Source: Marsupella aquatica (taxonomy: Eukaryota; Plantae; Marchantiophyta). From it: DNA of 64,000 nucleotides. A model generated the notes under the pieces. The model had not been told where the DNA came from. It made no database searches and was given only the letters and a program-made list of their open reading frames with translations. The stretch's first letter is position 1; each line of letters starts with the position of its first letter. Shown piece by piece: positions 17,292 through 49,838 of this stretch. The DNA is taken from assembly GCA_973895155.1 (NCBI GenBank), contig OZ316896.1, positions 10,055,525 to 10,119,524 on the forward strand. The letters run 5' to 3'. A program made the translations under genes and the position numbers.

Positions 17292-17303
17292 GCTCTGATA
17301 CCA
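17292..17303 (-). promoter_or_regulatory. Primer binding site for initiator Met tRNA
   Basis: TGGTATCAGAGC on the minus strand, 2 nt from the LTR. Confidence 0.92.
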
Positions 17304-17305
17304 AT

Positions 17306-17743: not shown

Positions 17744-17748
17744 TGGTA

Positions 17749-25600: not shown

Positions 25601-26954
25601 CTTACCGTTACTCGTCACAATAGAAACAACAGGCCCTAGAAGGCTGCACACTAGAGGACCGACTGATGGAGACCTCGTCTTCACACAAATAATAGTTCCT
25701 TCCATGTCTTCAGTTTCAGCAAGCTCAATGGCCCAAAAGAATCCAAATTGACCTTGTCCAGGGCAGGAAACCTCAATTGCATGTTCATCTTCAACTATCA
25801 AATTAGGTGATCCCAATTTCGCACCTGGTACAGCCAAAATATAGCAATTGTTAGAAACATGTACCACAAAACCAAGAAATAAATAGGTGGCTCGAGATGA
25901 TCTCAATCTTCCTTCATTTTTAGGATAGCTGAGGTGACAGTTTTATGCACTGTAGTCTGACATGTTTCAATGCCACATTTCATCCGGGGAATTTAAAAAG
26001 AGATTTCAACCCCAAGAAATCTAAAAAGATAACACAATAGTTAGGAACCACAATAGGCTCAAGATGATCTCAAGCCACCATCTATTTCAAAGAAAAAGAC
26101 AAGGGCTTGAGATGATCTCGATCCTCATATATATCAGTTGAGATTTTATTCCATTGCATATCATAAACCAGTCATCTTCACAAACGAGTTGGAGGACTAA
26201 GAAAGTGGTCCAAAAGGCAAGCTTGGATCACATTGAATAGGATATTAGTAATTGAAGTAGACGACATGGAGTCCTTCCAACTGGAAGAAATTGGCCAAGG
26301 GATACGAATGAACATAATGGAAGATGGTGATGAATATATTTGGCTTGAGACAATCTTGAGCCTAACATCTCAAACGAGTGATCCGAATATCATATTCAAC
26401 AATGAACATCATATTCAATCAATGATTAAAATCCACTTTCTCCATTGACTTCTGATACCCACAAACCCGTTCGGATGTCAATGATCAGAACGAGTTGGAG
26501 GGTAGAGAAGTCCCTGGAGGAAGGAAATTTTAGATATTTTGGATATGATGTTCACTTTTGAAGGATAAGAGTTTCCAACTTGAAGAAATCTGACTAGGTA
26601 ACATGCAGGAAATGCATATTGGCACGAGACGATCTTGAGCCTCATGCCACTTACATCAAATGCAAAATCAATTGATAGATCACAAACTTTTGAAGCAAAG
26701 TAATGCATAAAACATCAATAGGCTCGAGATGATCTCGAGCCTCAACTGCATCCAAGGAATCCAAAAACAAGTGGACCAATTGAAGCTCGAGACAATCTTG
26801 AGTTAAACCTGAACAATGAACAAAGATGATGAATTACGTTTAATGGTGCGATGGATCTGATGCGCTGAGTCTAGATGGGTCTGAAGCTCTTCCCCAACGG
26901 TTGCAAGGTTGTACTCAGCGAAGTCCTCCTTGGAGAAATCTACAACAGTCGACA
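22635..26954 (-). pseudogene. ParB-like domain fused to degenerate beta-class DNA amino-methyltransferase (outer element); upstream exons uncertain
   Basis: ORFs 25223, 24686 and 24278 share a frame across stops; AISGQHSA ParB-like motif; phase-0 intron 24204-24373; C-terminal VNPRAK...YFSCPGHTVLDFFFGGQTLKACVILGR. Confidence 0.7.
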
Positions 26955-29325
26955 TGGCTGGTGAAGAGAGGAACATACTACGGGCTGAGAACTTAAAAAC
27001 AAATCTCAGGCCTAAACAGAAAATATCAACCCTATCGAAGCTCGAGCCTAAACACAAAATCTTGACCCTATAAAATCTCGAGGAAAAAAACTAATCTCGA
27101 CCCTCTGAAATCTCGAGGCTAATACAAGGATCTCGAGGCAAGAGCGCGAGAAAATCTAGAGGCAAGAGGAGGCGAGGGAGGCAAGGAGGCGAATGTGCAA
27201 ATGGGGAGTTCAAACCCCCTGAAGCCACTATAAGCCCCTCGGCGGTCGGCCTTGAGGGCCGTGTCAAGCGTGCCACGGGCTCGTGCAGGCTCAGCCAGGC
27301 TGCCACGCAACTAGTTTGAGCGTACAGTCATTATTACGGTCACACATGTTGTCATTATTGTTATCCGTACTTCAGCCCTACCGTGAGTTTAGCCGTGACA
27401 CAAGTTCAAGCAAGCCGTCTTATTGGTCTTTTTGTGAGTCAGGGTTTTATATATTGCTTCTCTTTGCTCTCCAGCGGGTCATTCTTCTCATTTCGTTTCA
27501 CTGCTCGCTCGTTTCTCGCTCTGCCTCTCTCTCTCTCCCTCTCCCTCTCCCTCTCTCTGGCTCTAGATTTTTGCTCTGATCTCTTTCTATTGTTCTTTTT
27601 AAGGGTTGTGGACTCTACGTTTGTGTTTAGGATATGTTGAGAAATTATCATTTTAACCTCTGAAGGAGGTCTAAAATAATTGAGCACCTATCTTTTAGAA
27701 GACCAAACCTTTTCAGCTTATACTAATGTCGGTCAAAATCCATTTGGAAGCCTTTTCCCTCTATTTGATGGCCTTTTAGAAGCTATTTCTCAGTGTCTAG
27801 AAGTAAACTGGGAGCCTACTTTCTTAATTGCACCAAATCATTCCTCTAGATCATCTAGAGCCATTTATATGTTCTTATTTTGGGTGGCTTATTATTCATA
27901 ATAGTATCTTTGTCAAATACAATATCCTTTTTGGCTCGAGATCATCTCGAGTCATAAGTTTGATCCTCAAAATTATTAACTTTTGCCTTCTAGCTAATGG
28001 TGCATTCGGTTGTCCTTCTTCTAATTGAGTTTGTAGAGAGTCGGAGGTATAGAATCTGAATTTGCTATTCAATGAGATTTCATATTCTACCTTGAGATCA
28101 TCTCGAACTAGATACTTCTGAATTTTGACATATTGGTGTTTTTGGTCCCTCATCTACCTCGAGATCGTCTCGAGGTAGAAGAGTTTCTTATATTCTCTAT
28201 CACACAGTTTTATGGGATAAACTTCTACACTGGGGTTTTTTGGTTTGTTTTTGTAGTCACTTTACCTCGAGATCATCTCGAGGTAACTACATCCAACGGT
28301 TTGGACCACGTTTTCCAAATGGGGATTTTCTTTCGAGGGGACAAGGTTTGCCTCGTAATCGACGGAGTGGAAGTTGCTTGCGGGACCGTCCTCAAGGTTG
28401 ACCCGGGTGACTCAGTGCGTAATGTTGATTTGGGAAGTAATCGTATTGGAGTTCTCATTGAGAAGTGCTATGAGGGATCACGGGAAATTCCTTACCCTTT
28501 GACGCCGATCAGGACTCTATTTGATGCTGTCGACTCCTGCATTATTTGGGATGCCTCTTTTGCATATTTGAAGTCACAGTCAACTCTAGCGACAACACAA
28601 ATGGATGCCTCTTGTTCTACAAAGGATACGTTTCCCGGTTTTGTACTAGACAAATCTTTGGTGGGAAGTTTTGAAGACTCGATTATATCTGGCGACGAAG
28701 TCGAGCTCTGGATTGGCAATCAGATTGTGGCTCGTGGATTTGTGTTCAAGACGAATCCTGATGAGACCTGTCACAATGAAAGACTTGGCACTTCTAGGAT
28801 TAGTGTGAAAATATGTGAAGTTTTTCAAGGAAGGGAGAGGTTACCCTTTCCTCACAATGGAGCCGATACCGTTCAAGAAGCATTGGACACTTTTGTATTC
28901 TGGAATTTAAAGGATGTTACTTGGAGGAGTTCTTCCCAGGATATACTACACGACCTGTCCACACGGGATGTTTTTTCTAATTATAATTTCAAGGATTATA
29001 GTTTGCGTTCTAATTGGATGACCAAGGACTAGGTGGAATTGTATGTTGAGGATAATCGGACCAAAGTGGGGGTTGGCATCATCACAGTTCCTTTCGAGTC
29101 AGGTGCAATTGATGATGATGTTCTTGGGCCAGATCACGTTGGGGTTGCGGTCACACGCGTGATTGACCCTCTATTTTTCCCAAATATCTCCCCAGGAGTG
29201 CCTGGTCTTGTTAGGTGGGCCGTCCGTTCACTTCTGCTGATATCAAGGGGTATTTTTCTTTTGGATCTCATTGAAGAGGTTTCTCCAAAACCAATTATTG
29301 ATGGTCGAGATCATCTAGAGGTAGA
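24230..29325. repeat. Dispersed palindrome GGCTCGAGAT-N-ATCTCGAGCC (about 15 copies)
   Basis: Perfect copy at 26721-26741; variants near 24233, 24328, 25889, 26056, 26104, 26342, 26621, 26785, 27933, 28089, 28156, 28264, 29303. Confidence 0.88.
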
Positions 29326-30338
29326 TATGAAAGGTGACATTGAGTTTTCAAAGTGCCCGTATAACTTCATCAAGAGAACGAAGGTTAACCCAGATGAAAA
29401 AAGGAAGAAGCACTTGGAGTCTCGGGCGATACTGAAAATCACAGAGGAGGAAATTGACTCCATCCAAAGAGAAGGTTGTTGTAAGTTGAAGTGTTGCCTC
29501 AGCATGCCGAGAGAAGACCTACAGGCGATAAGGAGGGAATACCATGGGATGTCAAGCGGCAACAAAACCAGTCACATTCTCACTCTTTTTGGCTGTAGGG
29601 AGAAGGAGGTGGAGACAAAAGGATATTTCGTTGTAAGAAGTAGACTTGTTTGCAAGGGTGCATTTATTAAAATGCATGGATTCAGCACTGCCAAGTATTA
29701 TGATTACAAAAATCAATATGAAGCAGGTTGCACGGTTGGATTCCACGGAAACAAGGGTTCACACAAGACACGGGGAAGCACCTTGCATGCTCGTGCTTTG
29801 TTGGAGTCCATTCTAACCCAAAATGGAGAACCCATGCCGCATCTTCCCTATGGAGGGTCTCATGGTACTGACACGGTTGAGTACAGACTTCCATCTTGTT
29901 TCACGAAGAAAGAGATTTTTGAGGAGGTATACTCAAAAATGGAATTAGATGGCTACGTGAAGGTGAGTGAAAACACTATGTATAAACTCTGGAGTGAGTC
30001 CTTCATGAATTTTGACTTTCACAAGGGAAGTGCATTTGCAAAGTGTACACTTTGCACTGAGTTCAAAGATCAGTTGATGCGGGAGAAGAGAAAGAAAGAG
30101 CGTTTAGAGATTGAGGAAATAAGAGCTCGCCATCTTCGTGAGCAAATGTCTAGGAGATATGTTTACTATGCTCATAGGGTTCTTGCGAAGAAGGATCCTG
30201 AGAATTATCTTTGCATTATACATGACAAGATGGACCAAGCCAAGACATGGATCCCTAGGTTGGTCCCCACTCCTAAATCATTGTCTGGTAGTGGTCAACC
30301 GCTCCCCATTGCGCTCACTGGGATATTGACCCATGGAA
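28319..30338 (+). pseudogene. Outer Sola-like transposase, N-terminal part, with three Tnp1/En/Spm-like repeated domains
   Basis: Three repeats of VxxGxV...LG...IxVxI...(P.P)...W; in-frame TAG at 29030; GCCKLKCC, KCTLC, HDKMDQAK (first catalytic Asp region). Confidence 0.82.
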
Positions 30339-30494
30339 AACACGGTGACGGACCAAACGAGAAGTGTGACCACACTTCTCGTTTTGCCCGCGGCGAAAAA
30401 AGTTTCTAAGGCAAAAAAGTCTTGGATATGGAATTAGTATTCCCACTAAAAACTAGTTTTTCGAATTGAAAAAATGGGAAAAATCGACACGAAT

Positions 30495-31235
30495 ATGAAG
30501 ATGGGATACGGCGTATCCCATTTCGGATCCAACCGTGGAATTCCAAAAAAAAAAAAAAACGCAGTAAAAGTGCCGATATTGGTTTACCCAACAAGAATAT
30601 TCCAAAACAATTCTTTTCAACGGTAACATTTAACCGACTGCGATGCAACTACAGTCAAATACAAACCACGGTCAGTGAGAAAACTATAAATAGGAGATCA
30701 CCTCTTGAGAATTTTACGCTCATTTTTTCTCGCTCTGTATACTCTTACTCTCGATGAATGCACACCGTCTATACAAACTCGTATTCCCCAAAAATCAGTT
30801 TTGACGAATAGGTAAGAATCTTCCTGAAAATGGCGAGGACGAATCCCAAATGGGATACGGTGTATCCCGTTTGGGATTCAACCCTCAAATTTCAAGTTTT
30901 CATTTCACATTAGCTAAAAAAGGAGGTTGGATGCGAAGTTAGATACGGGGTATCCCATGTCGCATCCAACCTCTGAATATGAAGTATCGTAGACTCCAAA
31001 TGTCAAAACCTCAACATTGAATGCAAAATGGGATACGGCGTATCCCGTTTGGGATTCACTCTTCAAATGTCCTGTTTTTTTCTCTTTAGCTAAAAAAGGA
31101 GGTTGGATGCGAAGTGGGATACGGGGTATCCCATGTCGCATCCAAACTGCGAAAATGAAGCATCTTAGAACATAAATGTTAAAACCTCAACGTTGAATGC
31201 GAAATGGGATACAGCGTATCCCGTTTGGGATTCAC
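30495..31235. repeat. Palindrome array 1: TGGGATAC-NNN-GTATCCCA core with extended arms, six copies
   Basis: Copies near 30502, 30841, 30926, 31017, 31101, 31192. Confidence 0.9.
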
Positions 31236-31944
31236 TCTTCAAATGTCCAGTTTTGATTGCCCATGTGGTATTTACCTAGAGTTTATTTGAATGATGGGAA
31301 AAACCTTATGGATTACTGATTGTTTCGCAGGCGAAGTTCAACTAAACTGTACGCACTGAAGCTCTTGCTGCCTTTCAGTGACCGACACCCACTCAAGCTT
31401 AAGCTTTCCTTGAAAAATGAAGTTTTCTCTTGTGAGTCTAATGGCAGTTCAGAATCAAAACCTTGAGAAATGTGCTCATCGATTGTATAAGCGATTAGTT
31501 GCACTCAAAGTTCTTCATCCTGGATTAGGCGCGCTATGGACCGGAGGCGTGGATCCACATGATAGTTTGAATCCACTCCGAATAGAGTTTTATGAAAAAA
31601 AATGAGGATGGAGTTTTGATTCGGTTGAGGATATGTTTGAGTGGTTGTCTGCACTCTGTTAATTCTTCTTGTAACTATTGTCGTGATGCCCAAAACAAAT
31701 ATCATCGATTGGCATATTTTTGTTGTCGGATTTGGAACGAAGATCCTTGGGTTAACTTATCGCGTTGAATTTTCTTGATTAGTGTGTAAGTGTTTAGGTG
31801 AACGTTCTTGGGTCAAACATTTTGTGAATATATTTTTATTTTGATCAAAGAAATAAAATCAGTTTTTCCATCACTGTTTTGTAGGTTGCTGAGAAAGAGC
31901 TCACCATCTCATTTATTACTCCAGGTATCCACTCTTATTTTGGA

Positions 31945-32496
31945 ATGGCAGTCACTGAGAACCCTGTCTTTACAAGGTTAGCGATGTCATTCGACAAAGA
32001 GAAGAAACAAATTCAACAAAAAAGTGGCCAAAGGGAATCCAGATTGCTTTTGGATGGACTTCCTGACGAGATTGTTGAAACGTTCATTTGGCCCATTTTG
32101 AAAGTTTGTTGTATAGAGGATGAGTTTGATTCCTCCAAGAACCAAGCTGATGAAAGATTGATGCGATTAAAAACCATGGTGTGGTTTGGATGCACCTCCA
32201 AGAAATGGAACCAGCTCGTAATTTGTACACGAGTCTGGGGTATTCTTAGACTAGCAAAAAGCCAGCTTGAGGAAGTAAATGAAATGCTGACAAGCATTCC
32301 CGATGGAAAACCCCTTCAGAATGTTCATATTGAAGCTTTTGTTAGGATGGAAACACCGAATCTTCCTCCAATCGATTTCTTAGGTTTATTTTCAAGGTCT
32401 GACCTAAATCGATTTCAAGAAGACTGGCACAATCTTGAGAAAGATGAGCAAGCGAGGCTCTTGGAAATGTATGGGGAAGCTTCTAGTCTGGTTTAG
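31945..32496 (+). CDS. F-box-like protein (transposon cargo)
   Basis: Uninterrupted 183-aa ORF; LLDGLPDEIVETFIWP ... CTSKKWNQLV resembles an F-box with an insertion. Confidence 0.55.
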   Translation: MAVTENPVFTRLAMSFDKEKKQIQQKSGQRESRLLLDGLPDEIVETFIWPILKVCCIEDEFDSSKNQADERLMRLKTMVWFGCTSKKWNQLVICTRVWGILRLAKSQLEEVNEMLTSIPDGKPLQNVHIEAFVRMETPNLPPIDFLGLFSRSDLNRFQEDWHNLEKDEQARLLEMYGEASSLV

Positions 32497-32939
32497 AGCC
32501 ATCTTGAATGGGCTCTTTGTAAAGACTCTTTTTAAGAATATCAACTTAGTTTTTTTTGTGGCACAATTCCGAATGAATAAAGAGTTACCCGATTCGCTAC
32601 GCGTAAAATCTATTTGGTTGAATACAAGGACTTGGGGATATGCCTTATCTCTAGTCCCATCAAGAGAAAAAAATATACATAGACATCCGGACTCCAACCC
32701 TACGCTTTTGGATACACATTATCGCCTGTGGAAACCTTATCACCTGTGGATACGAAGGTGATAAAGTATAAATAGGAGTGCCTGGTCAGAAAAATTACTC
32801 TCATTTCTTTTTCTTCTCAACTTTGTTTACCTCCGCGTTTTTCTCGGGCCGCAACATCTCTATAGCTTTTCGTATTTGCTCGAATCGAAACCAAAAACTA
32901 GGTAAAACCTGAAGAAACTCTCCCCTCCTCGTTTGGTTA

Positions 32940-33330
32940 ATTGTTGAATCCTGAGAGGGATACACCGTATCCCCATTTGTATTCAACTCTATTATTTGGC
33001 CTCCTTTTCAATATTGAATACGAGATGGGATACCGCGTATCCCATCTCGCATTGAACACCCTCTTTTAGTCTTCCATCCGAACCTCCTCGCTCTTTCTTG
33101 ACTTTGAATACGAACTGGGATACCGCGTATCCCATTTCGCATTCAACTTCCTCTTTTTTGTGCTTTGCATCAGACTCGAGGCAATTGTTGAGGTTGGATG
33201 CGAAGTGGGATATCGCGTATCCCATTTTGCATTCAAGTCCCTCTTTTTTGTTAATTGCATCAGACTCTGGACATTTGTTGTTGTTGGATGCGAAGTGGGA
33301 TACCGCGTATCCCATTTTGCATTCAACTCC
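32940..33330. repeat. Palindrome array 2, mostly ~90-bp period, upstream of the ParB-MTase gene
   Basis: Five copies near 32944, 33014, 33104, 33193, 33283. Confidence 0.9.
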
Positions 33331-33425
33331 CTCTTTTCTGTTCTTTGCATCAGACTTGGCAATTATTGATGTTGGATGCCAAGTGGTTTGGTCTGGTTCT
33401 AAGTGTGTCAATCTTTTTCAGGATC

Positions 33426-36400
33426 ATGTCGAACAAATCAAAGTCGTCTAGTTCGACCCAGTCTTCATGGACATCCATCATCGATGAGATTTGGAAGAAA
33501 GACCTTTACACGGAGGAGAAACTCGTGAGGAATAGGTGGTACTTCAGGGATGCTCGGGCAATGGATATTCACATAGCCTATGAAGGTCCAGCGGTGTGGT
33601 TGGTTATCGTTAAGGGTAAAGACCATTGCCATTATGGATTAGTCGTGGACACCGGGGAGGCGGATATCATCGACTCAAAAACAAAACAGCTGAAGAAGAT
33701 TCCAATGTACCTTTGCATTCTTTCGAACAATGCCTTCACTGTAGTTGTCCTCAACTATAAGAAACTTGATCGGGTCTCGATGAACACATTTCCTCATGAC
33801 CCAATCTGCCAACTAATTTCGGAAGTGCCGGAGATTGAGGACTTTTCTTATTGGTGTTTGAAATTTGTCTTGAAGTCTTGGAGGGTTGTTGAGGATTTTA
33901 CGAAGGTAACATATAGGTCAGTTGTTGGAGCCAACTTTGGCGTCAAAGAGCGGCCTTTGAAGTTGAAAGTGACAAAGCCTACCGATCCGGCTTCAAAGTC
34001 AGGGGAGATGTCTAGAACACCCTCGACAAAGGAGAAATCTGCCATAGTTTCTCTTAAGGAACCGGCAAAGAGGAAGCTTGCAGATCAACTCTCTGGGGAA
34101 GGTTCTAAAGTAGCGGTGTCAGGAGAAGCTATTGTCAAGAAGAAATTGGATCGACGTGACATCCAGAAGCGCGCGCCTTCTGCACCAGAAAGTGTTGTCT
34201 CATCTTTGGTCCCACCAATTTCATAGACACCTCACATTCCTTCAACTTTGTCAGGTGGGCTTTCTTTATCATCTAGAGGAGCTGTTAAAGAAAAGAAAAA
34301 TGATTCAACAGATATCACCACAGCTTTGCAGCGGGAAAAGACACTTGTGGTTCGTGAAGTAGTATCTTGGTTGATGGAGACTAAGCGAGTTCAGAAGACA
34401 ACAGTTATTCTGAAAACAACTAACCTGCTTCTTGTTGACGATATTGACGACGAGAACTCAACGTTGGTTCGAACAGTCGATCAGTTGCATGTGGAGAACA
34501 TCAAGACTTTGATGAAAATGAATCCGACAAATTTCACGACGCCATTTGTCTTGTTTGTGATCCTGGAAGACTGCCCGACAGTGACAGACTAGGACCCAGA
34601 AAAGGCATCAAGCTAGAGATATCGAGTGATTGGAGGTAATCACGGTGCTCGGGCCAAGAGAGAATTGTATCAGGCTTATGGGAGAGAGATCTTCAATGAA
34701 CTCCAAGCTTGGGTGTATGCTGGTCTCACAAGGGAGGACATTCAGAAACTTAGCATCCAACATAATATTGATCAGGAGTACAGGAAAAAAATGAACAACA
34801 TTGATCAAATCCGAACAATGCATAAGATTTTCCTTGCCAGAGGAATGGCAAAAACCAAGGAGAGTAGAGAAGCGTGTGCGATGGAGGTTTGCCTCGACGG
34901 GTTTTTTCCGGGGGACGCCACAAGCCTGAAGAAGCATGAGCCTCTCTTCCAAATTGCGTTTAGGTCGGGTAAGGTCTGGGAACTCCAAGACCAGATCTTT
35001 GAGATGTGGAACAAGTTGGAGATCAAAGGGCAGAATAAGCAGAAGTCACCTATCAAGAAACTCAAGAAAGGAAAGGGAAAAGCGCAGTCGATTCCAAAAG
35101 CTTTGAATAAGCTTGCAGGGGGCCTTACCTTGACACCTTGGAGAGCAATCCAGGGAATTGAACACGACCGATTTTTGGAGTCCCTTCTTCTCCGAGTGAA
35201 GGACCGGATGATCTCTTTGGAGCATATGGCAAAAGAAGCCGAGAGTTACAAGAAACTTGTGAAAATCAGCAAGCTTTTTGTTCAGTTGTCAGGGCAGAAA
35301 GACTGGGCGACTTGCAAACGAATGTTTCCGAAAGAAACAGAATCTGCCGAGCTTGAAAGATGGAGTGGGAAATTGTCCGATGTGGTATGTTCTCCCCTTC
35401 CACTGATTGGACTTTTCTATTTGTTTCGCCATGTTCGGAGGTTTTCTTTGTGGATTTCTTGTTGGAATGCGAAATGGGATACGGGGTATCCCATCTCGGA
35501 TTCACTTGTGCTTATTTGATGTTGGTGATGTTTCAATGCGGTTTTTTCTTGGTTGAATGCCAAGTGGGATACTCGGTATCTCATCTCGTATTCACTTGTG
35601 GTTATTTGAAGTTTGTGATGTTTCAATGTGGTTTTTGCTTGGTTGAATTCAAAGTGGGATACGCGGTATCCCATCTCGTATTCAATATGGTTATTTGACG
35701 TTTGAGATGTTTCAATGTGGTTTTTGCTTGGTCGAATGCGAAGTGGGATACAGGGTATCCCATCTCGGATTCACTTGTGGTTATTTGACGGTGGTGATGT
35801 TTGACTATGGTTTTTGTTTGGTTGAATACGAACTAGGATACGGAGTATCCCATGTTGCATTCGTCGTCCAGATTTGATTGTTTGAATTCCTAAATGGTTA
35901 TCTCCCCATTGTCTTTCCTCTAGATTCTTTTAACAAGTTTGCGTTTGCAGTTGAAAGCTTTTTCGAAGAAGAAGAACAAGGATGCAATTGGTGCTGATGC
36001 GGTTGAGAAGCCTACGGAGGAGCTGACTTCGAGTGTTATTCCCCCGGGGTTTAAGAATTACGTTCAAGAAGCGATTGAGAACTACAACCGTCGTCGTGGG
36101 ATTGAAACGGTTGAAGCAGAGTCGAGTGACCATCGATGGAAAAATGCTGACATAAATTTTATCAGATATACATTGCATTGTGGAGATGTCAGGGCGCTGG
36201 ATAAGTTTGTAAAGAAAAGGAATTACACACTTGCAATTGCAGACATTCCTTATGGATTCAATGCGCTTGGCTCTGAAAATGATGAGGTCCCATTTTCAGA
36301 GAATGATATTGTGGATATGGTGAATTGTTTTGCCAAGGTGACAAGTTCAAAGATGTGGAGGTTTGTTGTGATTCACTCTTTGCAGCAAACTTGGTCTGTG

Positions 36401-37060
36401 ATGAATGCTCTTGGAAAAACTTGTAACGCAGGTGTAGAGGCTAGAATTTGGGAGAAGCCAAATGTACATGCTCATCCTTCCGGGAATCGATTGGCTTGGG
36501 CTTTTGAAAACTGGTCAATCGGATATTATCACGAGAGTGGTATTAGGACCAGAGACATGTACAATTTTGAACATGATGAGAAAAGGGTAAACATCATAAA
36601 AGTCCCTTATGTTACAAAGAAATGTGTAACACCATTGGGAGAAATAGTGAACCCTTACCAGAAACCGATAGCTTTAGCAGATTGCTTCGTTCAACATTTT
36701 AGTGAAGCAGGGGATTGGGTTGCTGATTTATGTGCGGGGAGTGGTTCGACCTCATGCACTGCCTTGTTAGGGAAACGTCCAGTGACAGCCGTGGAGCTCA
36801 GTGCAAGCCAGGTGGATTGTATCCAGAAACGACTTGTCACGCTTGATGAATCGTGGGACTTGAATGATGAAGCAACCGAGGAGGGTACAGGACCCATGAG
36901 CTTTGAGGTTCAACCACCTATTGGTGGTACTATGAGCACCCTCACCACTCGAACTTGCATTATTACAACCACGGAGGAGAACGACAATGATGAGGATGAA
37001 GAGGATAAAGTGGAACATGAAGCTCCGGCACTTGATCTTGGCTCATTCCTTGAGGTATAG
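33426..37060 (+). pseudogene. ~1030-aa ParB-like + beta-class N6A/N4C DNA methyltransferase fusion; exons 33426-35384 and 35924-37060
   Basis: One frame across three TAG stops; VIGGNHGARA ParB-like motif; phase-0 GT-AG intron; ADIPYG (motif IV) precedes YQKP...DWVADLCAGSGST...AVE (motifs X, I, II). Confidence 0.85.
35455..35865. repeat. Palindrome array 3: five 90-bp tandem units inside the ParB-MTase intron
   Basis: Units start near 35461, 35551, 35641, 35731, 35821; sequences between palindromes are near-identical. Confidence 0.92.
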
Positions 37061-37160
37061 ACTTAAGTTTGATTAGTTCTCTCATGTTGTATCTATTGAT
37101 CCAAACTTGTGAAATATTGAGGAAGATTATAATTGGACTATGTTCTTATTTCACAAAGTA

Positions 37161-38083
37161 ATGTCTTTGCAAGAACCAAAGGAGGATTTTGTATTGAAAC
37201 ATGTTCTGCATAGATTCTCACACAATTCTTCTAGTGGATTTTTTTTGGACAATAAAACATTGAGCCAACTTGAACCCGGTCAATATTTGGGTGATGAAAT
37301 AATGGAATTTTACCCACAATTAATAACCGAGGAACATGGAGATCTGGCTCCCTCAGTAAACACATTATCCTCTTTTTTTACCCTTGGCTTGTTTCAAGGA
37401 TTGAAACAGAACCAACTGAGACCTTGTTGGAATCAATTCAAAAGATCCAAAATTATTACAAGCCACCATTTTCCCAAATTGAGGTCATTCTCATGCCAAT
37501 TCACATGAGCATGCACTGGAGTCTGGTTGTAATATGTTTGGATCAGATTGAATCTTCGATCAAAATGTATCATCTAGACTCTCTCGCCGGTCTACACTCA
37601 ACCCATGTAATTGGATCAATACTGAGCAGGTACGTATATATTCTATTACATTTTTTCAATTTGAATTTATTTATGTGGTACATAAATATAAACACTTTGG
37701 ACTAAGAACTTTGAATGATAATTTGCAGATATTTTATAATGGAATGGGAATTATTTTTTGGAAAAGTTCCAATGGAAGTTGTGGAGATATACAATCCAAT
37801 GGTAAGGATTTGAAAAGTTATTTCAACTTTTATTTAGTTCAATTATTAAACACTTTGGACTAACTTTAAGATTCTTTCTCAGGTACCTCAACAACCAAAC
37901 AATTCAGATTGTGGTCTATTTGTTCTTCAAAATATGGACGAAATCAGAATTCAATGGCATATTACACAATGCCTTGATGCACAGTCTTTATTTACTGAAA
38001 AATGGTACAATTGTAAAAGAGCATGTAACCTTAGAAAATTCATTCGAGATCAAATTCTAAAATTGATGCATGTACCTATTTAA
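37161..38083 (+). pseudogene. Ulp1/SENP-like C48 cysteine protease, three exons, one frameshift near 37430
   Basis: YLGDEIMEFY; ILMPIHMSMHWSLVVI; YHLDSL; final exon 37883-38083 reads VPQQPNNSDCGLFVL. Confidence 0.85.
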
Positions 38084-38094
38084 GGACATCAATC

Positions 38095-41000
38095 TCAATC
38101 CTCTGAGTGTGCAGAACCTCTCTCTAATATAGCAGACTCTATAATTTTTTTAGTTTTTGCTGCTATTTGATTAGTACTTAAAAGCGCAAAGTTGTATGCA
38201 TACACCGCTGTTGATGATAGAACTAGTTCATCTTGGAGAAGTCGATTAGATATATTATCTTTCTCTGGAAAATATTTCCCATCAATAGCAGACTCAGCAC
38301 TTGCCTCAGTTGTGTACCATGTGATTTTGATTCTCTTAGGAATGTCTGCAGTTCTTGTCAAAATCTTTGACACCTTTGCCATCCAAAACAACTTGCCTTC
38401 TGGATCCTTGTGTGCCGCTACACATATCATGGACCACTTATTGTTAACTTCCATATCTCTGAAATCTCCAAATTCAGCTTGCTTTCGTCGAGGTCCGGAG
38501 TACATAATTCTCTGTGGTCTAGCAACTTTGTCAACCAAAGTTGGATCAACACCTTCTTCAACAAGTTCATTTCTCACCCTTGGAAGTAGTTGTGCACCTT
38601 GATTTTGTTGCGGCCAAACCCACTCAAATAACCACTCACCTTCCTCTAGGTGGTTTTTGATAATATCTTTTTGTTTCTCAAAAAAACTCATCCACCAAAG
38701 TTTATCTTCATTGTCAAAGTAATTGAAACCTTCCTGGATAGCTTTTTCATATTTCACCAGAGTAGTTAATGCACCATCTGTATTGGAAGAATCATGGACA
38801 TCATCCCTCTCAACACCTTTTGCTGACTTCAGTGACATTTGTGCAGCAACCCACATTCTTGAAGTTGGAATGTAATTGACGAACGTCACTGCATCTCCCC
38901 AATCCTGGGTCGTGGAAAGATGTTTCCCGTGAAATTTTGTCTCTTCGTTTCCATCCTCCATGACTCGTTTGAATCTGAATTGCCTTTGAAAAGTTATGAG
39001 ATTGAGATCTCTCAAGACTCTACTTGAGACTCCCTTCTCATTTGGCTGGTTGTTTTCATTGACAAATTTTCAAAAATCGGCTACTTCATCCACAAATATG
39101 ATCAAAGCTTCAGGTGAATATGCTCGTCGAATAATATCCCCAAGAGTCTCCAAGCGAAATGCTTTGTGCTTGTTTAACCTAGACAAAAATTTACTAAACA
39201 TCTGATCTATCTGGTCATGTGTATGACCGACCAACAAGAAACCCACTTTAATCTTGTCAAAAATCTTCAAATCTACTAACATGTGAAGATAAGCCATCAA
39301 GAATTTATTCTTGTTTTCCCGAGTGGTATTATCTAATTGAAGATATAACACTCTTGGTAATGTCCCATCCCATGTATTCAATACATTTTGAATAACATGT
39401 ATGGTCAAGTTTGCATCATTATGGATATTGGGATATGTCAAAAATACTTTTGCTACAAGGTTCCTGTTGAAGATGAGACAACCTACAACATGTATTGGAA
39501 TGAAATACTTTTCATCCATGTTCTTTGGACAACGAAGAAAATGTGGTAGCTCTATTTTCTTTTGATCCATACCATCTATACAAATACCCAAATACTTGTT
39601 GGGCTCATCATAGCATTTTTTACGATGCTTGGCTAACTTCATCCTTTCCAATGATTGTACTTTTCGATGCTCCATAAGGGCATTGATATACTTTCCTGAA
39701 ATGATACAATAGCAATGAATTAAAAATCAATAACTAAGGATAAACTGTGATAAATATTGAATTACATGTCATCAAATTAAAGTTGAAGGTTATAGTTAGT
39801 GGAACTTACTTTTATCCTCTTCAGTTGTTGCTTTGTCCCGAAGAGCCTTGAATTCAGTACAAGGACCACAAGTAGAAAATCGACTCCTTTTAGGAATTCG
39901 TACATTTGGAAACTTTTTTTTCCAAACATGCAAAAAATAAGAATATGTAACTTGTTGTTCTTCTCGCAACATTGTTTCAGCTTCAAAGATTCCATGTATC
40001 TCTTGCTTTGTCCAATTGTCTGGCAAGTGATGAATCTCTTTATGGGGAAGACTATCCATATTTTTTTGGAAAAAATCTTTCAACCATTCCACCAAGTTTA
40101 GAAATGAAGGTGAGTCTTCCTTACAAAAGGTATCTCGTTCAATCCTTGTAAACATGTTTGCATGGATTGTTGCCAATCTATTATTACCTAAAGAATATAG
40201 TTTCTTGAATCCTCCTCTACATATAGGTTGTCCATTTACACTATATCCACGAGAAGTACTACAGTTGTTCATGATACAACCTCGTAGCAAAATATTTTTT
40301 TGCAAGTGTTTAAGACCAAAATAATACTTGCGTTGTTTTGAGCATTCCTCTAGACCCAGAGACCTCAAGCAAAACTTGTCACAACAGGGATACTTAAAAA
40401 TATCTTTAATTTTGCGTTTTTTTAGATTTGCAATGGTAAGTCTATCTTTTCTAATCATCTGATCTCTGATTTTCTTGCTGGGTCTTGTCACCTCTACTCT
40501 ATCCTGAATAGTGTCGGGAGAACTTACCCCCTCACTATTTTCTAGTGAATTAGAATTTAAAACAAAAAGATTTTCTGTAGAGTTGTTTCCACTCTCCACA
40601 TTTTTTGTAACTGTTTCATGAACAATCTCACCTCCCAGGATCTCTTCAACAACATTTGAGATTACAGCAGTCTCTCTGTCATTTGCAGCCTCCTCTGATC
40701 TCTCTTCAGAGTCTTCTAAAAATGTAATAGGTGTTTGGATATTTCTAGTTTGAAATCTTCTAATGATATTCACATCTTCAGTCGGAGTACCGCCCACTTG
40801 TCTCTAAGACTGTAATCCCAGCCTAGGTGATTCTTCTCGACTTGAGGGCTCATCTTGACCATTGAATAATCTTTGGACAAGTTTCAATTTAGCATGTACC
40901 CTTGAATTTTCGGGCCCTCTCTCTGGCAGCTCACTTCGCAATAATCTCCGAGGAATTTTTTGGACACTAGATCTCTTCCCTCTTTCGTTCTGCGCTTGCC

Positions 41001-41980
41001 GTCCAATGGAAGATCCAAAAACCTCACACTGCATCCTCGCCAAAGGGCTTCGAAGTCCCATGTTGTTAGTTTTACCACTGTGAAATAACTGATGGGAATA
41101 CCGATTGGGATCCATGGATCCCAACTCGTATTCGTCCTTCGGGACTTCGAAGTAAAAACTTTCCCACTTGCTGTTTTGCGTCATGACTTGGTAATTTTTC
41201 GTTGCGCAATACGAACTGGGATCCGCATATCCCATTTCGCATTCCACCATCGGAACTCGGGTTGGAAGTCCGTAAGATCGGTGACTCGGGCACAAGATTC
41301 TGCAAAATAACACGAGGGAATACTAAGTGGGATCCATGGATCCCACTTCGTATTTGACCCAAGGAATTTGGTACTGAAGGAGACGAAATAGGTAATTCGC
41401 GTTCACCGTTTCTCAACATTCAAGTAGAAAATACCAAGTGGGATCCACGGATCCCACTTGGTATTCCACCCACAAAATTTGGCTCCGAGGCTGCCCCTCC
41501 CTGCAATTCCGGCACATTTGGACTCCTCATTCGCTCAAACTGTGATTGAACACTGGACACAGCTATCTTCACTCCCGGAGAACGAGACATTGGAAAAACC
41601 AATGGAGATCTTCGGGCGGGCCTACATGATAACGTTGTTCTTGGCATTAAAAACCGGGGCCTTTGCCTTTGAAGATTTGTCGGGGTTCGCGGTGAACCAA
41701 GTGTCTCTGTCGTAGGAACTACATTAGGCTTCTTTACAAGTAGACGTCGTTTAAGAGATTTACTTGGAGAGACATAGTATGAAATCGGAGCACCCACAAC
41801 ACTCCTACAAGACTCTGAATCAGACTCTGATTTCTCAGATTCTGAGGAAAATGAAATCTTTGGCACTACTCTCTGTGAGGCTGGTAATTCATTCATCAAA
41901 CGAGATGGAATAAATTTTCGAACAACATCTGGCGAAGATGCATCTGAACTGTAAATTGACTCATCACTTGAAGACGCCAT
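38095..41980 (-). pseudogene. Inner Sola-like DDD transposase, spliced, with premature stops
   Basis: PCCDKFC, TCGPC, IDGMDQ, LQLDNTTRENKN, FLLVGHTHDQIDQMFS; intron near 39697-39810; TGA at 39070 in frame with ORF 38095. Confidence 0.85.
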
Positions 41981-42765
41981 AGAGAATCAAACAAGGGTTC
42001 TATAGGAGTACGTATTCGTATCCAACAGAGAAAATTCAGATTACAGTATTCTATGAAAACAACTACTCAATACTGAACGAACCTCAAAGTAATCGCGAGA
42101 AATGAAGATGAAAAACAGATGCGAGCTCTTCCTTTTATAGTTTTCGGGGGCATTGGACACATGGCATTCCCTGATTGGTCCGTACGAGGGTTTTTTCACG
42201 TGAGAGTCTGTCTTTTCAAAGAATGCTGAAATTTAAATTGTAGATTTTCGAGGAAGTCGCCGTGGATCCCAGTTGGTCTTCAAACTGGAATATCAAGGTA
42301 TGTGATGCAAAAACTTCAAAATGTAGAGGTTGAATACTAGATGGGATCCATGGATCCCATCTGGTATTCATCTTCCTGTTTTCCCAATCAGTTTTTGGAC
42401 TTGCAAAAAAAATGGGATCCATGGATCTCAGTTGGTATTCATGTCGAAAGATCTCCTGATGCAAAGTTGCAAGTGGAAAACATTGAGGTTGAATACGATA
42501 GTGGATACTTGGATCCCATCTCGTATTCATCATGCGTTATGGTCTAAAAAGTTTCCGGACATGTCGTCAGGTTAACTTAACTAACTGTGTGGTTTGACTG
42601 TAGTCCGCGGTCAGTTTTTCGCAATTTTCAATTTTATTGCAGTCAAAAATTCAAACATTTTTAACCCGAGGTTAAATGGAAGCGTCAAGAGAATGATTTG
42701 GTGTGGATTTCGTCCATGTTCAATAGTTGAATCCGAAATGGGATACGCCGTATCCCATTTTCAGT
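41085..42765. repeat. Palindrome arrays 4-5, mostly the TGGGATCCATGGATCCCA variant
   Basis: Copies near 41090, 41206, 41316, 41436, 42329, 42412, 42488, 42726. Confidence 0.85.
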
Positions 42766-43109
42766 TTGCCATTTTGATGGCGAAAATGAAATCTTGTGTT
42801 TTACTCATTTTGTTTGACGCTCAGATTTAGCTTTTAGAAGGATCACGTGAAAAGCATTGTTTTTCCAGGTTTTGGAATTTGCACTTTTTTTAGATGAAGT
42901 GTATCGGAATTCTGGATTGTGACAATTCTGTGTTTTTGCATCGACAGTCTCTCGATTTGAAATCCGATGTTGGATGCTATTTTGGATTCATCCTCAAAAT
43001 AGCCTTTTTGATCTTAATTTTAGTGATTTTTCGCCGTTTTTCGCGAAATCAAAAACACACTTCTCGTTTGGTGGTCATACTTCTCGTTTGGTCCATCACT
43101 GTGTTGGAA

Positions 43110-44807
43110 GGGATCCCGGAGTGTATGCTCACTTCAGTTTCACTGGGCTTTGGCCGGGAGATGCAGACTTCACAGTGACATCATTGGCCAAGTGCCTTAG
43201 AGATCTGGAGGATTACAAGGGGGACAAATCTGGACACCACCTTGAAGGATTATATTGGGCTGCAACGAGGCCAATTTTTCAATCTCTTTTGGACTTTGAA
43301 GCATTTCTCGCAGGTTACTTAGAACCCAAAAAAGTCTCAATTGCTAGATTTCAAGGAGCTGAAGATGACCAAGATCTTGGGTTATCAAATGTGGTGGATG
43401 ACAACTTTGGTGTTGATCCCAAGGCTACATCTACCTCTTTCAAACCATTGCCAAGGCACCTGACCTTGCAAATGGATAATTCAGGGAAAGATTATAACAA
43501 AAACCAGTACGTGATGGCATTTTGCAGTGAGCTTGTTAGTAGAGGGGTTTTGAAACAGTGCATATGTCGTTTCTCATGGTTGGTCACACCCATGAGGATG
43601 TCGATGCATTGTTTTCAAAAGTATCCAACCAAGTGAAGTACAAGGAGGTTTCTACCCTCTTGGGGTTGATGGCTGAGGTTTGGGAGTGTGAAAGCATTCA
43701 TCCTGTCCCACGGTTGATCCAAGAGGTTGCAGCTTATAAAGAGTTTTTGAAAACTTTCAAGGTAAAAGACATAGAGGGTCACTCAAAACTAGTGGCATTT
43801 CTTTTCTCTATGAGAGATAATGTTCCAATATATCAATACAAAGCACATGTGAAACAACCTTGGTACCCTCCAACCGGAAGGTCCATTTGGAGAACTGATT
43901 CCAACACCAATGCTCTCATTTTACCAGAAGGTCAACCGTTTGCAAAACCCATCTCCGGGGATGTACGAGGCAAGGTTGAAGAAATCATCCCATTGCTTAA
44001 TCATTACATTGAGTTTTTGAAGAAGAGTTGTAAGGATGAGACCTCTACAGTATATCGTGAGCGGTTTCCTTTGGTGAAATATTGGGAGATGGTGGTGCAA
44101 GTATTATCTGGGGAGCTTACAATTGAAGGGGAGGTAGAAATAGCATTGACATATGAATTCTGGCCAAAAACCAACCACGGAACTGGTTACAAGGTTAATA
44201 GTACAGGAACCTCTGAACCATTTGGGGAGCCTAGTAGTAGTACACAGAACCCACAAATGGTGGAGCTTCAGAATGAGTACTTGGAAGAGATGGAGGATCA
44301 AGCTGGCACAACATTTGTTGGCGCTTGACACGAGCGAGAACTTGCACTTGGATTCCTCTGCAGGACATTCAAGAGGGTCACTTTGTATTTCTCCGTCCAG
44401 AGGATGAATGGGAAAAGAAGAATAGGAAAGAACGTTTCTGGTTGGTGAGAGCTTTGGGTGTTGTGGACCCAAACCATGAAGTTCCTTCAGGAGACTTGCA
44501 ATGCAATGAGAATTCTCCTACTAGTACACGGTATGCTCCTATGTTCCAAGTGCAATGGTGGAGGCCTAAACATGGTAAGCATGATGCACCGGATCATGTG
44601 CGATATTCACGTTGCTTTCAGACCACTAAGACTTGGGAGGTGGATCCTGGGTTTGACAGTGCCACTGAACGTTGGCAATTTGCTAATTCTGCTATGTATG
44701 GATTCAAGTCACGCTCTAGAGAAGAAAATATAATTGATAGAGGTTTGACCATTCCCAAGAATGTTTTGAAAACACTCAAAACCTACATGGAAGGGATTGT
44801 TGAGTAA
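43110..44807 (+). pseudogene. Outer Sola-like transposase, C-terminal part
   Basis: LTLQMDNSGKDYNKN and SFLMVGHTHEDVDALFS (second and third catalytic Asp); two frameshifts. Confidence 0.85.
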
Positions 44808-44832
44808 GTCAAATGTTTTTTAGTAGTCACTC

Positions 44833-44970
44833 TGTCAGAGTGAGGGAGTCTATGTCATTTAGTTTGGAATTAGACATGTCAGAGTGAGGGAGTCTATGTC
44901 AATTAGTTTGGAATTAGACATGTCAAAGTTAGGGAGTCTAGATGTCAATTAGTTTGGAATCAGACATGTC
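44833..44970. repeat. ~45-bp tandem repeat, three copies
   Basis: TGTCAGAGTGAGGGAGTCTATGTCA(A)TTAGTTTGGAATTAGACA units. Confidence 0.8.
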
Positions 44971-47053
44971 TTTAGTACTTACTGTTGGTTAGTACTAAGT
45001 AGTATATCTATTTAAGTAACTAATTATTATAATATTTTGGGATACTAGTTTGAATAGGTGGAGGTAATTGGACTTGGATACCTTTATAATTGCTTTAATT
45101 AATTATTATATCAATACAGACTATATATTACATGAAGTCTTAATATCCATGATAGGATGTGAGTGCCTCTTACTAGTAAACCTTAGTTTCAACTCGAGTT
45201 GCTTACTTAGAATGTAACAAATTATTTGTCTGAATGGATAGTAAGCCAGGTATCATTCAAATTTAATATATTAAATGCTCTCAATTAGTAACTAAGTAGA
45301 AGGTTAATTTAGCTAGCTAAGGGTAGAGATCATATTGAAGCTTTACTAGTTATATGGGTAGAGATCATATTGAAGCTTTACTAGACAGTTATATTCTATT
45401 AGTCAAATTGAATCAATGTAAGAAAGTTCTACTTCTTATCCAACATATTTTACATTATTATCACCCAAATATTTTTCTTTAGAATCCAAATTAATATTTC
45501 ATTTTCTCCTATGTACAATCTTGATCCCCCAAATGTACAACATCTGGTGCCCAAATGTACAACACCCACTGCCCAAATGTACAATTCTTGTGCCCAAATA
45601 TATATTTTTTGGTGCCTAAATGTCCAAAGATCAAAGAATTTTCCAGTTTTAATGAATAGACTGATCAATATTAAAGGGGTCCAAAAATTAATTAAAAATC
45701 TATATGACACAAAGGATGCCCCTTGATAACTAAGGCACATTGAAATAAAAATACATTACACAAAATTCTTAACCAGACAAAATCTGAAAGATGGCTTCAC
45801 TATTATAGCATGCTCATCCTGGAAAAAAAGATGTTGGGGCCATACAAGGATTCCAAACACTCTTTTAGCCCCAGTACACTACATAGATGGCCCTCAGTTT
45901 GCTTTGATTAAAAAAGGCTCAGAAGTGGGCTCAGAAGTGCCCCCAATTTCTTGTAAAGCCACCCTAAGGGCCGATCAAACATTTAGTATTAGTTAAAGGA
46001 AAGAAAATGCAAGGACATTTTTTGAAGAAAAAAAACCAGCAAAGGTAGGTTTAATTCTTCTCCAGAAAATCATTCCTAATTATATAGGATCATCTGACAA
46101 AAATGGACCTTGTTAGGGAGATCAAGGGCCCAGTGACTCCATAGACCTGTTAGGTTAGATCAAGGGCCATCTCCATAGACCTTGTTAGGTTAGATCAAGG
46201 GCCCAGTGAATTTATTTTCTCCAGGGACAAAGCATGCACTATGGCAGCGTCAGGGAATACAGGGTTACTCTCCATAAGCTTAGGGTGGCTTTACAACAAG
46301 TGCAACTTCTTTAGACTTTGTTCACCAAAACAAATTGGATGCCCACATCTTGTTGTAAATATAGGCTTTTCACCAAAACAATTTTGAAATGCAGTTGAAA
46401 AATGCATCTACATTGAAAAAAGAGCCAAAGTATTAAAATGTTTGGACCACGAGCAATGGTGTTTTAAAATTCACTTGACAAAATCAGCATTCCAGACCAG
46501 CGTTTTCTTGGGCCCACCTCCTATTCATATCCTAATTAAACCACTTGCATTTTATCCACTCATTTTAGGAAATGAAGTCAAACAATGGGCCCCCTCTGCT
46601 TGTAAAGCCACAACTAGTGAAGTGATTCGTAGAATTTGCCATAATAAATGTTTATGCTCTTTAAAGTGTAAGTTAAAGTAACACAATGGGATCCCGTTGC
46701 TGTAAACCCATCCTCAGTGAATTAATTCATAGAATTTGCCAAGTCAAAGTCAAAGTCCAAGACCAAGCACCTGCACAGCCAGGCTACACAGATGCTCAGA
46801 AAGCTTTCCATCGTGCTCATGAACAATATATAACACTGGTCTAGTACGCCTCTTTTCCTCACATGTCATCCAACTGTCTCCTTGCTGATTGAGCCAAGTC
46901 GCCAGGATTAAAGTTTTTGTGAAATCGTTGAAAGCATTTGCATCTAATCCAGTGCCCTCTCCATTCGCACTGCGAGTTCGCCGGGCGCATAGAGCAATAA
47001 CACCGCAGGCAATTCAATCGACTGACAGGCTCGATACAGAACAATTAAAGTCT

Positions 47054-48096: not shown

Positions 48097-49638
48097 TTAT
48101 GTACAAGCTCCGGTTAGACTATCGCTCAACGAGGCCTAGAACATATAGCTCAAGACTATGACTGTGAACGAAGCAAAGTTGCAGTTATTATGGTCTGCTT
48201 CGAGGAAATCAATCATGTCAACTAGGTCAAGTAGCCAACCCAGGTTTCTTCATAGAAGCGATGCAATGGTTTTCTAGTGCTAGTAGTCCCTTGTTTTGTT
48301 TACTGGAATTCTCTCGGACAAGTTTTTTAAACCTGAGGTCAAGCTGACGTGCGTCACGAACTTATCAACGAAATTAGAGTTAGAAAGGTGTCTAGGTTTG
48401 TCTTGCGTTGGAAGCAGATTCCATGATCTCATGTAGAAAGATCTTAAAACATGTATACCCTACTTTTTCGTGTGTATTCTTCACAGAAGGATGCAGATAA
48501 GAGGCTTCCAATATTGGCCATGGTCATTTCAATGTATGTCCGAACGTGGGAGGACTTGAGTTTATATGTCAGACAAATTAAAGCCATGTATGTATAATTC
48601 TTAGATGCTTGATTTTATCTACGAGCTTCGTTGACCAGCAGTGACTCACTGGAACTTTACGTGTCTGTCCTCTTCTCGGAGCTACAATTCTTACACTCAG
48701 TCTGTTTAAAAAACTCTAACCGCGTTGAACTAACTGGCCAATCCGATTCTTTGGCGAACATGTATTCTAATTACTGGATAATATGAGGATGCATGGACCT
48801 GTCCACCGCATTTGACCTCAACCCAACAAGACGAGTTCTCGGGAAAGCTCTACGTGACGGGACAACACGATTAAGAACCACACAGTTGCATTTGGAGACA
48901 ACCAACGCAATATATATACTGGTACATAACAATTGCAACGAGAGGCAAAAACTTCCCTCGATAATTTAAGTTGTGCTGATGAATCACGAAATTTCTTAAT
49001 TGACGGTGCAATGCACTGTAAAATAAAATGAAATTCCTGGTAAACATGTGAGATATGTGCAACGAGTTATTCTTCGTTGGACATATGTTGCCAGTACTTG
49101 TTGAAATCCTCTGTCGATACTAACCTGCACAATTGTGTAGCATCAACCTTCTCATTTCTTTGAATGCATTTTATGGAACAACCAAAGTCAAATTCATGTA
49201 CAGCCTGAGTAGCGTGAAATCTGAACTTCCAAGCCACTGTTTGAGGTCCGCAAAATTTGGTTTAGGAGAGTTTCCTTTTACACAAATCAACGAAGAAGGA
49301 CTGCACCCAGACGTCACTAACTTGAGTACTTTAATCACCAGTCCTCATCCTTGCTTCCTACAAGGCTCAGTGCACTCGGCAAAATAAGAGGGGATAGGAT
49401 TTCATTGGTCATCTACACGCGCTCGCACTGTCTCAAAATTTCTCCGGGAACGTTTTCCGTTATTCGTCACGGCTGTGCCATGCTTCACCACATAAACATG
49501 GAGTGATGTCCTATTTCTATTTCCAAGCAGACGAGGGCAATTTGAGGCTGCACTGTACTGCTCTTAATTACTGGACAGCTAAATTGCCCCGAGAAAACCT
49601 GATTGACCAGGGTGTCTCTCCTAGTTTTGAGCAGATTA

Positions 49639-49838
49639 CACACTGAAAGCTTAAAGGATCCGTTAATGGCCAACGTTGGATGTGCATTTGTCAGGCTATT
49701 CCCTTGGCGAAATTGAGATTTGACAAATGCTCATCCAACGTTGGCCATGGCAGAGCCCGGGAAGAGGGCGAGGCCTGGGAATCAACTGAAGGTCGATAGA
49801 TAGGCATCCTGAAAGGGATCCTTTAAGCTTTCAGTGTG
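49639..49838. mobile_element. 200-bp MITE-like element with internal hairpin
   Basis: Perfect 23-bp TIR CACACTGAAAGCTTAAAGGATCC; internal 28-bp stem with one mismatch; TSD unclear (TA left, CA right). Confidence 0.7.

Follow-up and report, generated by a model that had tools for sequence, protein, structure and literature searches.

Here we describe a putative two-part DNA site, possibly the target of a transposon-encoded methylase, in a Sola1-like element of the liverwort Marsupella aquatica. The stretch analyzed, here referred to as the window, comprises 64,000 nucleotides of contig OZ316896.1 (positions 10,055,525 to 10,119,524, forward strand), and the element, 12.8 kb in length, occupies positions 30339-43105 within it. 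It encodes a transposase, a protein in which a ParB-like region is fused to a beta-class amino-methyltransferase (the ParB-methylase), a Ulp1 protease and an open reading frame (ORF) named ORF-A, and it carries 24 short palindromes. The palindromes and their flanks seem to form a site that consists of a family-specific core and a GAAT word at a fixed distance of 11 bp outside it, a feature that is new. In our reading, the fusion protein likely binds the palindromes of its own element and likely writes N6-methyladenine (6mA) beside them, which would keep the genes of the element expressed; this reading as a whole is tentative, and we give it slightly less than an even chance.

The preliminary description of this DNA had claimed about 24 palindromes, and we counted exactly that number, all inside the element: 17 of type A (GGGATAC-N3-GTATCCC) and 7 of type B (GGGATCC-N2-GGATCCC). 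The search tolerated 2 mismatches, and neither type was found in the other 51 kb of the window. In 200 base shuffles, the mean counts were 0.04 for type A and 0.015 for type B, a lenient control, as the motifs had been picked from the data. The palindromes and the ParB-methylase gene are arranged as follows, with splice sites here and throughout being predicted:

30503-30519: single subterminal type-A palindrome
30812-31884, plus strand: predicted intron in the 5' untranslated region (5'-UTR) of ORF-A, with GT..AG ends and 5 type-A palindromes (30852-31222)
32902-33421, plus strand: predicted 5'-UTR intron of the ParB-methylase gene, with 5 type-A palindromes
33426-35384, plus strand: exon 1 of the ParB-methylase gene, encoding an N-terminal domain, a linker and a ParB N-domain with a putative helical DNA-binding region
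35385-35950, plus strand: internal intron with 5 type-A palindromes, matched in relatives by an array-bearing intron at this position
35951-37060, plus strand: exon 2, encoding a beta-class amino-methyltransferase and an acidic tail (PF01555, E value of 1.2e-6)
41107-41455: 4 type-B palindromes with 111-bp spacing, in the predicted first intron of the transposase gene
42343-42517: 3 type-B palindromes upstream of the transposase gene
42740-42756: single subterminal type-A palindrome

None of the 24 palindromes lies in a predicted coding exon, though such exons make up 61% of the element; most are located in introns or upstream of genes. Type B, with its N2 spacer, occurs only around the transposase gene (41107-42517), and type A, with N3, lies by the cargo genes and near both ends (30503-35851 and 42740); the presence of two core types may reflect differential regulation or a recombinant origin.

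Five related loci (L001 to L005) were recovered from 273 pattern matches in a metagenome scan; a first metagenome scan had found no related locus, and viral contigs gave no match by protein or by site pattern. Three of the loci share the core GCGAGAC-N2-GTCTCGC, with 15 copies in L002, 8 in L003 and 3 in L005, and L001 has 20 copies of a different core, CCGATCCAAACATCGG. None of these cores was found in L004, which is a short locus. In the four loci with arrays, the cores sit in the same kinds of places as those of the window. These observations support the view that the palindromes are family-specific noncoding arrays, fitting putative binding sites of the element's own protein. It is improbable that the transposase, or else a host factor, reads the palindromes and that the ParB-methylase acts elsewhere, for instance on host genes. 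Such an arrangement would account for the clustering of type-B sites at the transposase gene, and the core type does track the descent of the whole element, transposase included. However, the sites have the length and symmetry of parS, in 4 of the 5 related loci (with the upstream and exon 1 region of L005 included) they are found within introns of the ParB-methylase gene itself, and inverted-repeat arrays have been described next to a ParB gene in Plavaka, a transposase superfamily unrelated to this one (10.1101/2025.02.11.637652; this and the other published sources cited here were available in part, and statements about them are limited to those parts).

Outside the cores, the word GAAT begins exactly 11 bp from the core at 24 of 34 half-sites of type A and 10 of 14 of type B in the window. 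At the same -11 offset it is present in 22 of 30 half-sites of L002, 12 of 16 of L003, 3 of 6 of L005 and 11 of 40 of L001, while every other offset from -16 to -5 has at most 2 occurrences, with a background of 0.004 to 0.008 per position. Palindrome copies within one family are not independent, and the weight of this result comes from the recurrence of the same -11 offset across three core lineages in which synonymous sites are saturated. The putative two-part site thus formed by core and GAAT predicts which adenine would be methylated to 6mA.

The ParB assignment rests on a fold prediction for a relative, P0005, for which an AlphaFold model built from a 73-row alignment reached a pLDDT (predicted local distance difference test) of 90.3; it supersedes an earlier 6-row model with a pLDDT of 54 and weak ParB matches. 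All 11 Foldseek matches to the P0005 model at an E value of ≤0.001 are ParB or Noc proteins (best E value, 2.6e-5), and its N-domain superimposes on Caulobacter ParB with a Z score of 10.6 and a root mean square deviation of 2.5 over 99 residues. The full-length alignments cover both domains, but entries holding the DNA-binding domain only gave weak matches (Z scores of 4.0 to 4.9). Pfam HTH_ParB was detected weakly (E value of 0.05) in one of six proteins, and a PDB search with the 73-row ParB profile gave no match. Of the ParB-methyltransferase previously claimed, the methylase was recovered by Pfam above its cutoff and the ParB fold in a relative, whereas Pfam found no ParB in the window's own protein. 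The arginine patch GERRxR (G101ERRxR) is required for cytidine triphosphate (CTP)-dependent spreading of ParB (PMC7053999). In an alignment by eye, the corresponding position reads GNHGAR (GGNHGARA in the close family). Because of this replacement, sliding-clamp action, and with it the site-loaded mode previously claimed, is doubtful, and CTP-driven sliding has probably been lost.

That ParB and methylase belong to one protein is supported by P0006, which is continuous across the junction of the 35385-35950 intron. The ParB part has five relatives at 49 to 53% identity and exon 2 has 23 at 46 to 78%. Among 36 longer relatives, chosen by length from the best 150 matches, 9 carry PF01555 at an E value of ≤0.01; a methylase-domain search among longer proteins found nothing. 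The N-terminal domain of about 170 amino acids (33426-33935) belongs to no Pfam family but has a conserved counterpart in L005 (24% identity; E value of 3e-12). Another relative, P0051 from Chara braunii, is a gene model of 1825 amino acids with two tandem ParB-methylase units and may represent two merged copies. Exon 1 of the window copy has in-frame TAG codons at 34224, 34590 and 34614; relatives carry tryptophan in place of the second and third, and at 34590, contigs of three of the four public sequencing runs placed on the region (X1, X2 and X4) read TGG, with run X6 lacking coverage there.

The methylase domain matches N6_N4_Mtase (PF01555) with 29.1 bits against a cutoff of 26.7, and its motifs follow the beta-class order IV-X-I (DIPY, NPYQKP and DLCAGSGS). 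In an alignment of the window with 18 of the 23 exon 2 relatives (five short ones omitted), 18 of the 19 rows cover motif IV, all of them with DIPY or DVPY. Distant relatives have D[FLAV]PY. The motif is conserved yet noncanonical, and methylase activity is accordingly not assured. The best match of known structure in a PDB profile search is M.RsrI (E value of 0.003). An aspartate, rather than a serine, at motif IV favors 6mA. It is also conceivable, although quite unlikely in our view, that methylation of its own sites serves the element as a timer or brake, through negative autoregulation or gating by hemimethylation, or that a base of the core is modified, possibly to N4-methylcytosine (4mC). 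Dam hemimethylation gates IS10 transposition after replication, and the arrays here flank the transposase promoter; each core type has G-A after G or C, type B includes GGATCC, and the third and fourth places in the profile search go to 4mC methyltransferases, just behind M.RsrI. Against this stand the aspartate at motif IV and the fact that it is the outer GAAT, rather than the core, that the families have in common.

A natural comparison is provided by a second, older element, as the transposon studied here is nested within a distantly related one. The outer element spans at least 20090-44807, with its accessory gene head-to-head with its transposase:

29033-44807, plus strand: transposase of a second, distant DUF7869 element, the target of the insertion and split by it, with a frameshift near 43547
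22638-25942, minus strand: accessory gene, ParB-like by motif only (GQHS), with a degenerate methylase

Its methylase reads DFGR where DxPY is expected and matches PF01555 below the cutoff (E value of 2.5e-4), and the ParB-like part gave no match to the ParB-part profiles. The outer element has 17 copies of a palindrome of its own, CTCGAGAY-N-RTCTCGAG (20090-29320), and GAAT stands at the -11 offset in 0 of their 34 half-sites. An element without GAAT and without DxPY would fit with GAAT being the methylation target, in this one case. A search for the ends of the outer element with 12-mers yielded only two AT-rich pairs, and its ends were not found. The retention of 17 palindromes beside a methylase without DxPY could also be taken to mean that the fusion is a structural or regulatory binder, which represses or activates the promoters of the element or bridges distant sites to pair its ends, with methylation absent or incidental. 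This is an unlikely reading, consistent also with a D-x-P-Y motif in which x is never proline and with the single type-A sites that lie about 165 bp from one end and 350 bp from the other. Yet the aspartate, the Pro-Tyr pair, NPYQK and DL-x-GxG are kept in nearly all aligned rows despite saturated synonymous sites, and 22 of the 24 palindromes lie in introns and promoter regions, away from the ends.

Comparison of the window copy with L001 to L005 gave nonsynonymous differences (pN) of 0.10 to 0.39 and synonymous differences (pS) saturated at 0.77 to 0.99 in 21 of 21 pairs; with synonymous divergence (dS) saturated, no ratio of nonsynonymous to synonymous divergence (dN/dS) was computed. Low pN with saturated pS indicates long purifying selection on the ParB-methylase, and the data support its being conserved cargo across families. 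The selection test on cargo genes that the preliminary description had proposed points, for this gene, to purifying and not neutral evolution. L001 to L003 share the two-exon ParB-methylase gene and the upstream palindrome arrays. In L001 and L003, the 3' end of the transposase gene lies tail-to-tail about 350 bp past the methylase stop with no Ulp1 gene, whereas in the window the corresponding 1,034 bp are occupied by Ulp1. This identifies transposase and ParB-methylase as the core of these elements and Ulp1 as a family-specific extra. It is very improbable that the cargo was captured passively and contributes nothing to the spread of the element. The genes of the window copy are broken, and 10 of 15 listed exon differences in ParB-methylase and Ulp1 change the amino acid, as expected for decay after insertion. 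Purifying selection between families is strong, though, the intron position and the tail-to-tail transposase linkage are conserved, and one of the stops is replaced by TGG in contigs from three runs. Passive capture is thus refuted for the ParB-methylase and may hold for ORF-A and Ulp1.

Among 20 clusters of relatives that were looked up, 5 are from Chara, 3 from Riccia, 2 from Adiantum, 1 from Ginkgo and 3 from marine invertebrates, with no flowering plant in this biased sample. In the tree, the window protein lies within a starred clade of 11 rows. Sola elements are known in Physcomitrella, and together with the relatives above this suggests a nonflowering land plant as host.

Returning to our proposal of self-directed methylation, we envisage the following steps. 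A dimer would read the 16- to 17-bp core through the ParB helical domain, as ParB reads parS. The methylase would be active and, with its Asp-type motif IV, make 6mA; its target would be an adenine in the GAAT word that lies roughly a helical turn beyond each half-site. The mark would then sit at the promoters and first introns of the element and might favor transcription or block silencing, as VANC does for VANDAL transposons. Our confidence falls in this order, from core reading through 6mA activity and the GAAT target to the transcriptional effect. In a more far-reaching version, which is possible but rather doubtful, this would be a private, family-addressed 6mA system of Sola1-like transposons in nonflowering plants, in which the ParB module reads a fast-evolving core, the methylase writes the fixed GAAT adenine on both sides, and the resulting "active" mark counters host silencing by 5-methylcytosine (5mC).

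Several points weigh against self-directed methylation. One element contains two core types, with N3 and N2 spacers, so that a single protein would have to read both. Core and protein vary in step, yet this is true of the entire element. L002, L003 and L005, which have a common core, form a starred clade, and the sharing is explicable by kinship alone. Five loci and three core types are too few to show coevolution. In L001, GAAT is mostly one-sided. Motif IV is never the canonical DPPY in the ParB-methylase family, and the ParB fold comes from P0005, which is 51% identical over the aligned part, and not from the broken protein of the window. For the contrast with the outer element there is one example, and it belongs to a distant family. 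Finally, the window copy has evidently not been shielded from decay.

Parts of this picture are already in print, namely, a Sola1 ParB-methylase, inverted-repeat arrays by a transposon ParB gene and the idea of self-marking. The Ectocarpus element Sola1-1_Ec32 encodes a 1104-amino-acid protein with ParB-like and N4/N6 methyltransferase regions on the strand opposite to the transposase, and its authors propose self-binding and self-modification (PMC12477816). An undescribed combination, as the preliminary description had put it, is therefore to be rejected, since the same fusion and the same idea had been published for this brown alga. The two elements are alike in being giant transposons (Sola1 in Ectocarpus, Sola1-like here) with a 4-bp target site duplication (TSD) that tends to have A as its last base (GGAA in this case), in their termini (AACCG-CGGTT in Ectocarpus and AACAC-GTGTT here) and in an accessory protein, of about 1020 amino acids here, encoded opposite to the transposase strand. 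They differ in that Sola1-1_Ec32 is 21.5 kb long with 282-bp terminal inverted repeats (TIRs), and the available account, text only, is without palindrome arrays, a target site prediction or Ulp1. In the red alga Bostrychia, Plavaka elements with PAG2/PAG3 are likewise giant DNA transposons, with a PF01555 methylase, a ParB-like protein for which self-binding has been proposed and tandem inverted repeats by the ParB gene (10.1101/2025.02.11.637652). Unlike the present element, they have an EnSpm transposase, a ParB that is joined to a 2-oxoglutarate (2OG) oxygenase and, encoded by another gene, a methylase joined to SET.

In Arabidopsis, where the comparable systems are VANDAL/VANC and KIU, antisilencing by VANC through family-specific motifs has been shown experimentally (PMC10398659), and a Ulp1 domain occurs in a subset of families (PMC13317346). 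Family-specific short motifs, noncoding arrays, Ulp1 in some families and a reader encoded by the element (probable here) are common features, but the VANDAL transposase is of the Mutator type and VANC is an unrelated protein that removes marks, its function having been shown whereas ours is inferred; the resemblance is one of analogy, not membership. From bacterial ParB/Noc with parS or Noc-binding sites, the fusion retains the N-domain fold, a putative helical DNA-binding region and palindromes of similar length, and with the beta-class enzyme M.RsrI it shares the motif order IV-X-I, but in contrast to these proteins the two parts are fused in one eukaryotic intron-containing gene and GERRxR has become GNHGAR. 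Compared by description, MpDN4MT1a/b of Marchantia are also prokaryote-type amino-methyltransferases of a nonflowering land plant, likened by the authors to beta-class 4mC enzymes; they are host genes that produce genome-wide 4mC in sperm, and the available text has no mention of ParB (bioRxiv 10.1101/2021.02.12.428880). The ParB-methylase family is not described in the available text of PMC4738411. Our literature search found no plant case and no combination with Ulp1, although Repbase or older surveys may describe these plant families.

The core idea of the preliminary description, marking of its own DNA by the element for self-recognition or antisilencing, is plausible. Two algal genome papers of 2025 proposed self-binding or self-modification, and their available text gives no testable site; the conserved geometry described here indicates which adenine to examine in PacBio or Nanopore reads and which oligonucleotides to use in binding and methylation assays. 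If correct, VANDAL would be joined by a further self-modifying transposon system, the second of its kind, and plant 6mA would have a defined source. In the far-reaching version, the fusion would also be a natural, modular, sequence-addressed adenine methylase and the base-writing counterpart of VANC.

With regard to the element as a transposon, its boundaries and remaining genes are as follows:

30335-30338: left TSD, GGAA, identified by its duplicate at the right end and by the empty-site joint
30339-30373, plus strand: left TIR of 35 bp, starting with AACAC
31945-32496, plus strand: ORF-A, 183 amino acids, open, without an assigned family and with a weak F-box-like stretch only
37140-38083, plus strand: Ulp1/C48 protease gene, three predicted exons, with His/Asp/Gln/Cys motifs and a frameshift near 37470
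38095-41980, minus strand: DUF7869 (Sola1-like) DDD transposase, with predicted introns near 41089-41472 and 39696-39809
43071-43105, minus strand: right TIR, ending with GTGTT
43106-43109: right TSD, a copy of the left GGAA

The two TIRs agree at 32 of 35 positions. Contigs from the four runs (X1, X2, X4 and X6) were placed on 29000-45000, and a contig joint from 30333 to 43105, which omits 12,771 bases corresponding to the element plus one TSD, was found in three of them (X1, X2 and X6, but not X4). TIRs and TSD bear out the earlier claims and, with the empty site, support movement of a Sola1-like element as a single unit. The reading frame restored by joining the flanks, previously ascribed to a host gene, encodes the second DUF7869 transposase, frameshifted near 43547; insertion into a host gene is therefore rejected. 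All 30 bins of the 29000-45000 region were covered in each run by many divergent contigs, from which we infer that the element belongs to a multicopy family, with the caveat that contig depth is no copy number. Run X1 alone gave 1,757 contig records, of which 316 were ≥99% and 251 <90% alike. Just inside each end, a 14-bp word of the TIR, AAACGAGAAGTGTG, recurs (30355-30384 and 43056-43092), forming a hairpin at the left end and a direct repeat at the right end; these repeats are likely transposase-binding sites.

The Sola superfamily is defined in part by a 4-bp TSD (PMC10741241). Here, a 4-bp TSD, TIRs and a DDD transposase were found, and the termini and TSD resemble those of Sola1-1_Ec32. 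The transposase matches Pfam DUF7869 with an E value of 1.3e-44, in agreement with the Sola-like assignment made earlier, and its translation contains IDGMDQ, LQLDN and GHTHDQID. We take these to be the DDD triad and DUF7869 to be the Sola1 transposase. Stops at 39070 and 40804 interrupt the gene, so that transposase, methylase and Ulp1 are all broken in the window copy, a decay that had previously gone unmentioned.

The Ulp1 protease was likewise confirmed by Peptidase_C48 matches (E values of 9.6e-9 and 1.5e-5), with catalytic motifs HW, HLDS and QQPNNSDCG in one spliced frame downstream of the frameshift that breaks this copy. A contig of run X1 spans the methylase end and Ulp1 (36845-37788, with 16 differing letters and 1 gap), and Ulp1 is hence present in other copies of the family. 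L001 and L003, the two related loci extending as far as the transposase, lack it, and Ulp1 as a core part is rejected. As the methylase stop and the Ulp1 start are separated by only about 80 bp (37055-37140), with a GT located at the final methylase codon, a spliced KIU-like methylase-Ulp1 fusion is possible. ORF-A scores below threshold for an F-box (Pfam E value of 0.52; 10.8 bits against a cutoff of 20.5) and had no PDB match at an E value of ≤10; the F-box previously claimed is rejected as an established domain, a divergent one being conceivable. The four-part toolkit proposed for this element consequently loses its F-box and, in the related loci, its Ulp1, and we regard Ulp1 and ORF-A as family-specific extras rather than core parts. 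By Pfam, the element contains no ParA or endonuclease gene.

Elsewhere in the window, further broken elements occupy the region 312-18734, as far as ORF translations alone show. They include a CACTA-like transposase (312-1523, minus strand) and a Gypsy-like element with a nested Copia-like element (about 11835-16074, minus strand). Inverted repeats of 31 and 28 bp that are nested at 49634-49843 may represent a miniature inverted-repeat transposable element.

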